Source: Escherichia coli
GTDB taxonomy: Bacteria; Pseudomonadota; Gammaproteobacteria; Enterobacterales; Enterobacteriaceae
Reading direction: 5' to 3' (one strand)
NCBI RefSeq assembly: GCF_003790525.1
Contig: NZ_CP033633.1
DNA length: 64,000 bases
Positions 56,224-57,444 of the stretch are shown piece after piece. The notes under the pieces are model-generated. The model saw nothing but the letters and a program-made list of their open reading frames with translations, ran no database searches and was not told the DNA's origin. The translations under genes were made by a program, and so were the position numbers. Every line of letters starts with the position of its first letter. Position 1 is the first letter of the stretch.

Positions 56224-56817
56224 TTATTGCTCAGTCTGCCGTTCCTTCATCCTGAGCCACCGTTGTTCTATTATCGCCAGTCTTTGACCAGCACTCTGTG
56301 CTTCAGTTTCTGAGACCTGCCCATCGGGATGACCATCCAGCCCATAACGAGGGACGCCGGCGACAGAGGTCCGCTGCAGATATACGCGGCGGGAGGTGAT
56401 GCAGGACACTGCACAGAACCATTCGTCCATGGACAGTTCTGTATCCGGGTTTTCTGCCAGAAATGCCGAAATATCATTGCTGATGCCAATTTTCAGGGGG
56501 ATAAATCCACCGCCTTCATCACGAAGATGAGGAAACAGGGTTTTTATTTTTTCCACGCACTCGTGAGTATACTCTCTGGTCCAGTGGGCGGGACGTGGGA
56601 AACGGTGTCTTTTCTTTTTCTTCTTCCGGGCCGGCGCTTCGGGGATATGTGTTTCGACGGCAGATGAAAATATTCCTGTGGGTGTTGATTCTGTCGCCTG
56701 TTCAGTAGATACAGGCACGATAATATCTGTTTGTTCGGATAAGGATGGTGGCGAAAAAGTTCTACGTTTTTTCACCACAATGACGGGGGTTTTCCTTTCT
56801 TTCTGATGTTTTTCCAT
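56224..56817 (-). CDS. ProQ/FinO-family RNA-binding protein
   Basis: 197 aa; basic N-terminal region (KKKKKRHRFPRP) and a FinO-like domain by eye comparison with F-plasmid FinO. Confidence 0.6.
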   Translation of the reverse strand: MEKHQKERKTPVIVVKKRRTFSPPSLSEQTDIIVPVSTEQATESTPTGIFSSAVETHIPEAPARKKKKKRHRFPRPAHWTREYTHECVEKIKTLFPHLRDEGGGFIPLKIGISNDISAFLAENPDTELSMDEWFCAVSCITSRRVYLQRTSVAGVPRYGLDGHPDGQVSETEAQSAGQRLAIIEQRWLRMKERQTEQ

Positions 56818-57161
56818 AAATACCTCGGCTGGCTGGTTTTACTCTTTAATAATATCACAATCCATAAATTAGTAAATTTTCCGCCAGGTGATTTTTATAG
56901 CTAATAAGTCCGTTCTCTGAATGTTTATACTCGCTGTAGTAACAGTTATGGTGCGACAGCCCTTTCATTTTCCTGAAAGAGCTTTCAGAATATAAAAGTT
57001 AAGTAAATGGCAGCCACAGAAACTGATATAACGAAACAGAATAATTCAAATATTGCAGTTGAGTTTCCGACAACCGGATTATTGATAAAGGAAAAGTAAT
57101 CCGCCAGATTCGGGTAAACAATCGCTGCACAGGATAATTGCCAGGCTGTGGAGAAAACAGC

Positions 57162-57398
57162 ATGATACCGGTACTGGAACCGTGTTTTCAGGGAGTACCG
57201 GATATGTGGTTTTTTTCGACAGTTCTGTTTCTGCTCATTGTTATCTGCAGTGTGGCTGGCGTTGTGAATGCACTGGCTGTGCGGCGTGAATTACATGCAC
57301 GCAGGGAACAGGAATATCATGCCCGGGGGCGGACTGCGATAGGCGAGCGTATCCTGCGGGAACGGTACGAAAAGTTCCGGCGCCGCAGACAGCACTAA
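57162..57398 (+). CDS. small hypothetical membrane protein, 78 aa, Arg-rich C-terminus
   Basis: ATG at 57162 with GGAGAA 7 nt upstream (track ORF starts at 57138); followed by a hairpin terminator. Confidence 0.35.
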   Translation: MIPVLEPCFQGVPDMWFFSTVLFLLIVICSVAGVVNALAVRRELHARREQEYHARGRTAIGERILRERYEKFRRRRQH

Positions 57399-57400
57399 AC

Positions 57401-57444
57401 AAAAAAAAAGCCCCCTTTCAGGAAGGGGGACTCACTTGCGTTTT
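57401..57444. terminator. intrinsic terminator hairpin, likely bidirectional
   Basis: A-run, then stem CCCCCTT / AAGGGGG with 5-nt loop, then T-run; on the minus strand the stem is followed directly by a 9-T run. Confidence 0.6.

Follow-up and report, generated by a model that had tools for sequence, protein, structure and literature searches.

A predicted fopA orthologue, a small membrane-protein gene and a minus-strand terminator block on an IncK2/I-complex plasmid of Escherichia coli

The plasmid locus described here probably consists of three unrelated things, juxtaposed by recombination and transposition: an orthologue of the RNA chaperone gene fopA, a gene encoding a small membrane protein, and a block that carries a minus-strand terminator (Table 1). 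The window (the whole 64,000-nucleotide stretch of E. coli DNA that was analysed) belongs to an IncK2/I-complex plasmid, and the plasmids that match it closely are typed MPF_I/MOBP, not F-type. This reading of the locus is carried by sequence identity and domain content, by the RNA elements of the target, by selection on the coding frame, and by synteny and the junctions; RNA binding, the effect on copy number, membrane topology and use of the terminator are predictions from them.

Table 1. Features of the locus and of the presumed RNA target, in window coordinates.
Feature	Position	Strand	Basis
Presumed FopA RNA target: repA/repZ leader pseudoknot region	51520-51673		Rfam, pCol1B9 comparison, fold
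fopA orthologue, 197-aa FinO/ProQ-domain RNA chaperone	56224-56817	-	ORF, PF04352, identity to pCol1B9 FopA
Promoter-like site for fopA (TTTACT-16-TG-TATTAT)	56849-56876	-	Consensus scan 9/12, extended -10; function inferred
UvrD-like helicase remnant, last 13 codons and stop (VIRQIRVNNRCTG*)	57096-57137	+	Homology with L010, L009 and L005
Promoter-like site for small ORF (TTGCCA-17-CATGAT)	57138-57166	+	Consensus scan; function inferred
5'-leader hairpin (CCGGTACT / AGTACCGG)	57168-57201	+	Fold -16.6 kcal/mol, z-score only -1.9
Small ORF, 64 aa, one N-terminal TM helix and Arg-rich tail	57204-57398	+	dN/dS, alignments A1 and A4, hydropathy, AF2
Intrinsic terminator, 7-bp stem (57411-57429), then U9 (57409-57401)	57401-57429	-	Terminator scan, fold
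Left part of conserved ~140-nt block that starts with the 57401-57429 hairpin	57430-57483		Alignment with uninterrupted relatives
IS91 element (tnpA; orf121, 58859-59224)	57484-59312	-	NF033538, PF04986, PF14319, junction, alignment with L001

The FopA orthologue and its presumed RNA target

Proteins of the FinO/ProQ family recognise terminator-type hairpins with 3' U tails. The fopA-like ORF matches the ProQ/FinO family of Pfam (PF04352; E = 1.1e-12, 48.3 bits versus a gathering cut-off of 27) over residues 84-186, which cover profile positions 4-102 of 109, and its product is 84% identical (92% positives) to FopA of the Salmonella plasmid pCol1B9 over 194 residues (1-194), with 16% of the residues unlike those of pCol1B9 FopA. 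The N-terminal region contains two basic stretches, KKRR and KKKKKRHR, both conserved in pCol1B9 FopA, and Y146 and R157, the Tyr and Arg for RNA binding on the concave face and the residues named in the FopA paper (PMC7491321), are invariant in an alignment of FopA, FopA-like proteins and FinO (alignment A3). At the sequence level, matches in the PDB are the N-terminal domain of ProQ (5nb9, 1e-4) and RocC (7rgs, 1e-3). Near full-length similarity, the basic N-terminal region and a co-resident Inc/repZ-type replicon all place the protein in the FopA subfamily; judged by its sequence, the ORF is an intact, full-length orthologue of FopA (YafB), the chaperone of I-complex plasmids. The preliminary description had already recognised a FinO/ProQ-like RNA chaperone gene here, and the concern that it might be a degraded fragment devoid of the RNA-binding domain is answered by an intact protein with its FinO domain in place. 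The gene has a Shine-Dalgarno sequence (GAGG) 5 nt ahead of its start codon (ATG 56817), its promoter-like site is also found in the relative L002, and homology of the region with IncI1 plasmids extends to 56959.

The likely target of the chaperone lies in the same plasmid. A PK-repZ leader is found at 51524-51673 on the plus strand (Rfam RF01087, 177 bits), and on the minus strand at ~51532-51582 there is an Inc-type antisense hairpin with the loop CGCCAA, followed by UUUUCCUUU; the hairpin folds with -34.4 kcal/mol (z = -4.2), and the leader is 86% identical to that of pCol1B9, the changes in the stem being paired. The Inc antisense RNA of repZ is the main ligand of FopA in vivo, where it dominates RIP-seq, and FopA, with a Kd of about 1 uM, accelerates the pairing of Inc with repZ and shows a similar affinity in vitro for a fragment of the repZ leader (PMC7491321; FopA is also covered in the review PMC9977716). 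By homology, the orthologue is predicted to bind and stabilise the Inc antisense RNA (~70 nt) that its own plasmid transcribes from the repA leader (~51.5 kb) and to speed the pairing of Inc with the repA/repZ mRNA; this pairing would block the leader-peptide-coupled pseudoknot that is required for translation of RepA, and plasmid copy number would thereby be held down. Such a function in copy control is already known biology, to which the gene adds nothing new in kind.

The correspondence with pCol1B9 (IncI1) of Salmonella Typhimurium SL1344 extends beyond identity. The two proteins are of similar length (197 versus 200 aa) and share the basic N-terminal region and the FinO domain with Y146 and R157, and in both plasmids the gene is found at the same place and points the same way, a few kb downstream of a replicon of the repZ type that is governed by an Inc/PK-repZ region. 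The differences are an IncK2/Z replicon in place of IncI1, paired changes in the Inc stem, the last 10 residues of the protein, and the neighbour on the 5' side, which is yagA in pCol1B9 but the small-ORF module and IS91 in the window.

Two other modes of action were considered for this protein. PcnR of the IncI2 plasmid pHNSHP45, a repressor of RepA synthesis and of copy number, is likewise a plasmid-encoded FinO-domain protein of ~200 aa and has the same KKTPVIVVKKRR N-terminus; it belongs to the same family branch, and its gene, too, lies a few kb downstream of repA (PMC8053102; PMC9977716), but it binds the repR leader stem-loop rather than the antisense RNA (PMC8053102), and in IncI2 plasmids its gene is located after the hok gene and the conserved non-coding block (Table 1). 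It is rather doubtful that the window protein acts in this manner, binding the rep leader stem-loop and repressing RepA synthesis independently of antisense RNA: although FopA can bind the repZ leader fragment in vitro as well as it binds Inc (PMC7491321), identity to PcnR is only 34-40% (34% to the PcnR of L019) versus 84% to FopA, the dominant ligand of FopA in vivo is Inc, and the leader in the window is of the I-complex PK-repZ type, not IncI2 repR. Less probable still is a fertility inhibitor of the FinO type, which would shield an antisense RNA resembling FinP and repress the genes for conjugative transfer. The FinO/ProQ domain (PF04352) is common to the window protein, FinO of F-like plasmids and ProQ, yafB of IncI plasmids is labelled "FinO bacterial conjugation repressor" by some annotators, and deletion of PcnR increased transfer about 8-fold (PMC8053102); nevertheless, the window protein reaches only 30.8 bits with the NCBIfam FinO model (PRK13754; cut-off 136), both the FinO and the ProQ equivalog models falling far below their cut-offs, it is 28% identical to true FinO, and the C-terminal domain of ProQ is absent from it. 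An Rfam scan of the whole 64-kb window yielded no match to the FinP family, the window contains no FinP/traJ partner, and the MPF_I/MOBP transfer system of close plasmids has no traJ/FinP circuit. Of the two functions that the preliminary description had proposed, antisense control of the repA copy-control RNA thus agrees with the predicted FopA orthology and with the PK-repZ leader and Inc-type hairpin in the window, and control of transfer genes finds no footing.

The preferred reading, in which FopA acts upon Inc, may not exhaust the ligands of this protein. A member of the FinO-like family is held by ~3,200 plasmid records, and a 98%-identical copy occurs on plasmids typed only IncFIA/FIB/FIC, which have CopA-type control; on account of this occurrence, the FopA orthologue may bind other or additional ligands.

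The small membrane-protein gene and the recombination junction

A 78-aa ORF with one transmembrane segment and a basic tail had been described as an uncharacterised neighbour of the chaperone gene. The open frame (57162-57398, plus strand) has the sequence reported earlier, including RRELHARREQEYHARGR, and the membrane segment, the tail and the uncharacterised status all stand, but the length is to be revised: the conserved frame opens at ATG 57204, behind a Shine-Dalgarno sequence (AGGGAG, 57190-57195), and encodes 64 aa. Conservation begins at MWFF and does not include the 14 extra N-terminal residues of the longer version; the start codon and Shine-Dalgarno sequence of the shorter one are kept across the aligned relatives. 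The upstream start (ATG 57162) was rejected, being out of frame in the relatives L006, L007 and L008.

The substitution pattern marks the small ORF as a genuine coding gene under purifying selection. In-frame dN/dS is 0.14-0.47, versus 0.5-1.5 and 1.7-4.2 in the other two frames, and the most distant pair of copies gives 0.16 at a dS of ~1.1. That the small frame is open merely by chance, within intergenic or 3'-untranslated sequence, and is not translated, is accordingly very improbable, even if RefSeq often omits its annotation, some copies carry frameshifts, and no known domain matches it: the excess of synonymous changes is specific to one frame, start codon and Shine-Dalgarno sequence are conserved, and the ORF is kept in three different genomic arrangements. 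The ORF looks translated, contrary to a doubt attached to its first description.

The predicted transmembrane helix comprises residues 2-26 (hydropathy 2.71) and is followed by a 38-aa Arg-rich tail with 14 R/K and 6 D/E residues (net charge +8), predicted to form a cytosolic helix; the AF2 model of the whole protein is a single long helix (pLDDT 75). By the positive-inside rule, the product would be a single-pass inner-membrane protein with its N-terminus outside and its C-terminus inside, expressed from a promoter-like site of its own, of which the -10 region is invariant in 8/8 aligned copies. The 3' arm of the leader hairpin overlaps the end of the Shine-Dalgarno sequence, and a shortened version of this hairpin is retained in L007-type copies. 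No known relatives were found in Pfam, NCBIfam, PHROGs, PADLOC or by a PDB profile search, and close relatives were the only matches elsewhere, when 5.8 billion proteins were searched through a word index and 1.84 billion representatives with a full HMMER profile. These searches, which had been recommended for the small ORF, uphold its description as uncharacterised. The family is tiny (43 protein clusters and 106 plasmid records; at 50% identity, 13 clusters) and is restricted to plasmids of enterobacteria. For the small protein, a dispensable accessory role in the membrane is the most likely one, ahead of that of an addiction toxin, and "accessory membrane protein" is here the default reading.

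The DNA immediately upstream of the small ORF preserves a trace of its former setting. Homology with L010, L009 and L005 begins at 57096, which puts a breakpoint at 57095/57096, and in L010 the bases that match 57096-57137 are the 3' end of an annotated helicase CDS (2522-3976). The small ORF was probably once the last gene of an older operon comprising a fopA-like gene, a UvrD-like helicase gene and the small ORF, of which the upstream genes were replaced in this plasmid lineage by an inverted fopA region of the IncI1 type, leaving a 14-codon helicase stub. A 130-aa minus-strand ORF annotated across the module in L010 matches no family, and the window contains no comparable open frame on that strand. 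The arrangement in which the FinO-like gene and the small ORF face one another (56224-56817 on the minus strand versus 57204-57398 on the plus strand) was correctly noted in the preliminary description; on the evidence of the breakpoint it is a recombination product, and because recombination created it, the head-to-head layout has no evident regulatory meaning.

Terminator, conserved non-coding block and IS91

Between the small ORF and IS91 lies a GC-rich hairpin (57411-57429) that had been taken for a bidirectional terminator. The hairpin itself is real, but a U-tract (U9) follows it on the minus strand only: the plus strand has an A-tract (A9) and the stem, and continues into ACUCACUUGCGUUUUG without a U-tract. 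The terminator scan calls the hairpin solely on the minus strand, in the window as well as in the relative L002, and the structure is conserved in IncI2 plasmids with a different loop. It is, by these features, a canonical intrinsic terminator on the minus strand only, and would end minus-strand transcription, so that transcripts leaving IS91 (orf121-tnpA) would stop short of entering the small ORF in antisense and continuing towards fopA.

The hairpin is the first element of the ~140-nt conserved block, which is incomplete in the window: hairpin 2, an AT-rich segment and GAAATCCGATGAGT are missing, uninterrupted relatives extend about 65 nt beyond the cut, and neither a second copy nor the missing half of the block is present in the window. 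The cut coincides with an IS91 element, identified by an IS91-family HUH transposase (57671-58846/58858, minus strand; NCBIfam NF033538, 282 bits versus 125) that also matches PF04986 and PF14319, and by a 121-aa ORF (orf121) directly upstream of tnpA. The oriIS end at 57484 abuts CTTG (57480-57483), 54 nt past the hairpin, and the right end is placed provisionally near CTCG (59309-59312); IS91 prefers CTTG/GTTC as its target and has CTCG at terIS (PMC13181058). To judge from this junction, IS91 truncated the conserved non-coding block here at a CTTG target. The block is common to I-complex, F and IncI2 plasmids and invariably has a FinO-family gene nearby: in I-complex and F plasmids the module is downstream of fopA-like genes, and in IncI2 plasmids, which lack the small ORF, the block is upstream of hok-pcnR, ~500 nt from hok. 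A search of Rfam at a permissive threshold, with the window region and the uninterrupted relatives, found nothing relevant. Species-representative genomes gave zero matches in a pattern scan. Other candidate functions of the block were discarded: a downstream ORF beginning MKSDEW, whose start lies in the block, varies from 5 to 57 aa, with sequences unrelated between loci and no ATG in IncI2, and the partial resemblance of the AT-rich segment to an Xer (dif/cer-like) or Tus Ter site, by comparison with consensus sequences, is lost in the IncI2 version.

The nearness of the small ORF to the block raises the question of a type I toxin-antitoxin-like system, in which the small protein would be the toxin and the antitoxin a ~100-nt convergent sRNA transcribed from the downstream block on the minus strand. 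Such an RNA would start with a 5' hairpin and run through an A/C-rich linker into the shared terminator and its U tail, and a FopA-family chaperone might assist it, in an arrangement much like par (Fst/RNAII) of pAD1. The product is small and hydrophobic with a charged tail, its Shine-Dalgarno sequence is partly within the leader hairpin, the sole canonical terminator faces the minus way, the part of the block upstream of it contains no protein gene on that strand, and the module is always near a FinO-family gene and located in the region for plasmid maintenance, next to Phd/RelE and ParM, a setting similar to those of par and hok/sok, where a small hydrophobic ORF also lies beside a convergent terminator. 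The nucleotide sequence of the block is conserved, and its hairpin 2 is kept by exchanges of G-C for A-U pairs while the loops vary freely; evidence from G-U wobble pairs for the strandedness of hairpin 2 is split 3 to 2. No minus-strand promoter was detected within the block at the 9/12 scan threshold, and the predicted pairing of the sRNA with the 5' region of the mRNA is no better than that of dinucleotide shuffles in 5/6 loci, for which reason trans pairing through par-like direct repeats was rejected. IS91 cuts the block in the window and at least 13 identical plasmids, another IS cuts it in L011-L013, P0017-type copies, L014, L017 and L018 lack it with the ORF still open, and IncI2 plasmids have it without the small ORF; ORF and block are therefore separable in nature and lack the obligate linkage of toxin to antitoxin. 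With its 64 aa, 38 of them in the basic tail, the protein is larger than typical type I toxins, it has no sequence relation to Hok, Fst or Ldr, and no known toxin family in Pfam, NCBIfam, PADLOC or PHROG matches it. The toxin-antitoxin reading is thus unlikely, the evidence on balance being unfavourable to an addiction module, and the suggestion in the preliminary description of a toxin-like peptide has gained no positive support: there is no toxin family match and no demonstrable antisense RNA, and the block has been repeatedly lost or cut.

Similarly slight is the chance that the small-ORF module and the ~140-nt block form an undescribed RNA-based unit travelling with chaperone genes of the FopA/PcnR type, for which the block would encode a second client. 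The postulated product would again be a minus-strand sRNA of ~100 nt, beginning with a 5' hairpin and ending, after an A/C-rich linker, in a terminator whose U tail is long, and such an RNA would be a textbook ligand of FinO domains; the thermodynamic signal of this putative sRNA is z = -0.5.

Implications for plasmid biology

If such a unit were real, the target of the putative sRNA might be the 64-aa membrane protein, under control like that in a type I toxin-antitoxin system, or another plasmid function, and if the block is transcribed, it would supply a second plasmid-borne RNA client for chaperones of the FopA/PcnR type. On the preferred reading of the locus as a juxtaposition of unrelated parts, it offers two modest leads: a narrowly distributed 64-aa membrane protein, under purifying selection and without known relatives, and the conserved non-coding block itself. 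The FopA copy-number chaperone is shown to be carried by IncK2 plasmids, and by some of the IncF type, in E. coli from poultry and humans, and its carriage is relevant to the fitness cost and the persistence of resistance and virulence plasmids.

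A FopA orthologue with its presumed cognate RNA target

The FinO/ProQ-like gene reported in the preliminary description is present and is not a degraded fragment: its product carries the PF04352 RNA-binding domain at residues 84-186 (48 bits against a curated cut-off of 27), falls far below the NCBIfam equivalog cut-offs for FinO and for ProQ, and shares 84% identity (92% positives; 194 residues aligned) with the ProQ/FinO protein of pCol1B9_SL1344 (5713-6315, minus strand). The pCol1B9 gene adjoins yagA, where fopA was placed by Gerovac et al., who renamed YafB as FopA (PMC7491321). 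Tyr146 and Arg157, singled out in the same study (PMC7491321), have identical numbering in the window protein, and both basic N-terminal stretches are kept in the alignment. In vivo, the ligands of FopA are dominated by Inc, the ~70-nt antisense RNA of repZ; FopA binds Inc, the repZ leader and the Inc-repZ complex at ~1 uM and speeds up duplex formation (PMC7491321), a role summed up in a review as copy-number repression (PMC9977716). The repA leaders of the window and pCol1B9 share 86% identity. On the minus strand, the window leader carries a long hairpin (-34.4 kcal/mol, z -4.2) that has CGCCAA as its loop and precedes UUUUCCUUU; its stem differs from that of pCol1B9 by changes that come in pairs. 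By sequence, the plasmid appears to hold both a FopA orthologue, a gene of an already characterised kind, and its cognate Inc/repA target. The idea that this protein acts in antisense control of the repA copy-control RNA was therefore correct, and already established for the FopA family; the other suggested role, control of transfer genes, is disfavoured by the lack of any FinP match in an Rfam scan of the 64-kb window and by only 28% identity to bona fide FinO. PcnR of IncI2 plasmids is a more distant relative (34-40% identity), with a reported mechanism that differs from that of FopA (PMC8053102).

FopA-family genes are common (3,205 plasmid records by tblastn). A 98% identical gene occurs in locus L002 (8325-8918), from NZ_OW967796, a plasmid typed only as IncFIA/FIB/FIC on which genes for a true FinO and for a CopA-type antisense RNA are present as well (729-1289 and 3138-3228 of L002). 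As far as plasmid typing goes, this suggests that FopA occurs outside Inc/repZ replicons too, at odds with the 'equal phylogenetic distribution' described for plasmids of the pCol1B9 type.

The 1.8 kb around fopA and the small ORF is 100% identical to several E. coli plasmids from chickens and humans, such as NZ_CP029742 (typed IncK2/Z) and NZ_OY757114 (typed IncI-gamma/K1), which are typed MPF_I/MOBP. In the window, repA is followed by a Phd/RelE pair, the hexapeptide acetyltransferase gene and then this locus. In the identical plasmids, the pentapeptide-repeat gene beyond IS91 is followed by astA (EAST1). The tandem sok matches elsewhere in the window would imply duplicated hok/sok loci.

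Features of the window and of one IncI2 plasmid
Feature	Coordinates	Strand	Remarks
AgrB antisense RNA match	374-462	-	borderline, 41.6 bits (cut-off 40)
sok antitoxin RNA match	3652-3808	+	123 bits
sok antitoxin RNA match	4372-4529	+	117 bits
PK-repZ leader of repA	51524-51673		Rfam RF01087, 177 bits; ~4.5 kb upstream of the fopA/small-ORF locus
Hexapeptide-repeat acetyltransferase gene	55456-55944	+	serine/colanic-acid type; flanks the locus
FinO-like ORF (fopA)	56224-56817	-	197 aa
Helicase stub	57096-57137	+	reads VIRQIRVNNRCTG-stop; aligns with the final helicase codons
Promoter-like site of small ORF	57138-57166	+	TTGCCA-17-CATGAT; coincides with the invariant stretch holding ATG 57162
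Shine-Dalgarno AGGGAG	57190-57195	+	8 nt ahead of ATG 57204
Small ORF	57204-57398	+	64 aa
Terminator hairpin	57411-57429	-	7-bp stem, then U9
Pentapeptide-repeat protein gene	59634-60197	+	187 aa; distant Qnr/MfpA-like similarity far under cut-offs
Copy of the conserved non-coding block	2365-2505 of L019 (IncI2 plasmid NZ_KY012275)		further copies in L023-L041

The small ORF and the origin of the head-to-head layout

Homologues of the small ORF occur in 106 plasmid records (43 protein clusters), and its module in 80 of 5,426 complete E. coli genomes, nearly always on plasmids. Across seven loci dN/dS (Nei-Gojobori) is 0.14-0.47 in its frame, against 0.5-1.5 and 1.7-4.2 in the two remaining frames, and the most divergent pair gives 0.16 at dS ~1.1. 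Such frame-specific selection marks a real gene, and searches that included 1.84 billion representatives (in which the family forms 13 clusters at 50% identity) found nothing past close relatives, bearing out its description as uncharacterised; it is probably a genuine orphan membrane-protein gene. The 78-aa form first described (57162-57398, plus strand) exists, with the quoted tail, but its start was rejected: ATG 57162 shows no variation in the DNA, yet in three related loci (L006, L007 and L008) it falls outside the reading frame, conservation begins at MWFF, and the N-termini of distant homologues are unrelated. Transcription from the promoter-like site would start downstream of ATG 57162. 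Read from the conserved start at ATG 57204, the protein begins with a segment that lacks charges and is strongly hydrophobic (Kyte-Doolittle 2.71) and ends in a tail of 38 residues, 14 of them R/K and 6 D/E. AlphaFold2 models the protein as a single continuous helix.

The module (57096-57483) is a discrete unit that recurs in other contexts. It comes directly after a FopA-like gene in L007, L008, L011-13, L015, L020 and L031, after helicase remnants in L005, L009, L017, L018, L028, L035, L037, L038 and L040, and in L010 and L025 after a FopA-like gene of the same architecture, 53-56% identical to the window FopA. In L010 (1905-3976 for the pair) that gene overlaps, by annotated coordinates, a same-strand gene for a 484-aa UvrD-like SF1 helicase with generic GajB-like matches in PADLOC, and the small membrane ORF comes after it; the three genes may possibly form an operon on IncK2 plasmids. 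Because the window retains a helicase stub at the left end of the module and shares the fopA upstream region (56818-56959) with IncI1 plasmids, the head-to-head layout is derived: an IncI1-type fopA region was attached to what remained of a fopA-like/helicase/small-ORF unit at its far end. The attached fopA region keeps the orientation relative to repZ seen in IncI1. The promoter-like sites of fopA and the small ORF are ~260 bp apart, nothing at the locus points to shared regulation, and the small ORF is on only ~3% of FopA-bearing plasmids.

The terminator hairpin, IS91 and the conserved non-coding block

The supposed bidirectional terminator between the small ORF and IS91 is a GC-rich hairpin that is canonical on the minus strand only: the plus strand has A9 ahead of the stem and ACUCACUUGCGUUUUG behind it, and a terminator scan calls only the minus strand, in the window and in NZ_OW967796. 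The IS91-family transposase gene lies beyond it, from 57671, and IS91 adjoins CTTG at 57480-57483, one of its two preferred target tetranucleotides at the oriIS end (PMC13181058). In IS91-free relatives ~65 nt more continue past 57483 before sequences diverge, comprising hairpin 2 (GTGCCC-loop-GGGCAC), an AT-rich segment and GAAATCCGATGAGT; the right half of a conserved block of ~140 nt was thus removed by IS91, and no second copy was found in the window. Both tnpA and orf121 read towards the junction, and the minus-strand terminator would halt transcription coming out of IS91, keeping it from proceeding antisense into the small ORF. At 58824, a C-run in the window IS91 is one C longer than in its otherwise identical counterpart in NZ_OY757114, which on the coding strand adds a G at 12 codons into tnpA. 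The start in the ATGA orf121/tnpA overlap (58856-58861) then meets a stop after 16 codons, and the long transposase frame opens only at TTG 58846; the extra base is either an error in sequencing a homopolymer or a true frameshift that may have inactivated IS91.

IncI2 plasmids carry the whole block (right half 71-77% identical), separated by ~900 bp from repA on its upstream side and, on its downstream side, by ~500 nt from hok and ~800 nt from pcnR. Its parts come in the order terminator hairpin, GCAAGAAGCAC and GATCAAAACG (both given as minus-strand sequence), hairpin 2 and AT-rich end, with no small-ORF homologue beside these copies. The hairpin therefore belongs not to the small ORF but to an independently conserved non-coding unit, common to I-complex/F and IncI2 plasmids. 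Several loci have been rearranged at the block: in L011-13 an insertion downstream of the small ORF, beginning CTGTCTCTTATACACA, breaks the terminator loop; in L021 (2790-3060) a FopA-like gene breaks off near codon 70 and is joined straight onto the right arm of hairpin 2; and in L007 (5700-5950) a second, degenerate module copy, retaining the promoter -10, the C-terminal codons and the GAAATCCGATGAGTGG end with most of the ORF deleted, flanks an alpha/beta-hydrolase insertion, which suggests that block ends may act as recombination points.

A toxin-like peptide was proposed for the small ORF, and a type I toxin-antitoxin toxin would suit the size range and hydrophobic helix of the product, the position of the gene amid maintenance genes, the partial occlusion of its Shine-Dalgarno sequence by the 3' arm of a leader hairpin, and the convergent terminator with its conserved non-coding neighbour. 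However, the ORF stays open although IS91 cuts the block in the window and at least 13 identical plasmids, another IS cuts it in L011-13, and it is missing from L014, L017 and L018; the block occurs without the ORF in IncI2 plasmids; complementarity between the putative block RNA and the mRNA 5' region is not significant; and the protein matches no known toxin family. A type I toxin-antitoxin role is improbable, and a dispensable accessory inner-membrane protein is the more likely default.

Read on the minus strand, the block resembles an sRNA gene, with a 5' hairpin, an A/C-rich linker and a terminator that ends in a long run of U; hairpin 2 preserves its stem by exchanging G-C for A-U pairs, whereas the loop is variable in length and sequence. 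This resemblance is only a lead, since no promoter inside the block reaches the scan threshold, its fold is no more stable than shuffles, wobble pairs do not decide its strand, and no Rfam family matches the window region or the uninterrupted relatives. A possible RNA unit accompanying genes of the FopA/PcnR type is the sole novel thread at this locus.
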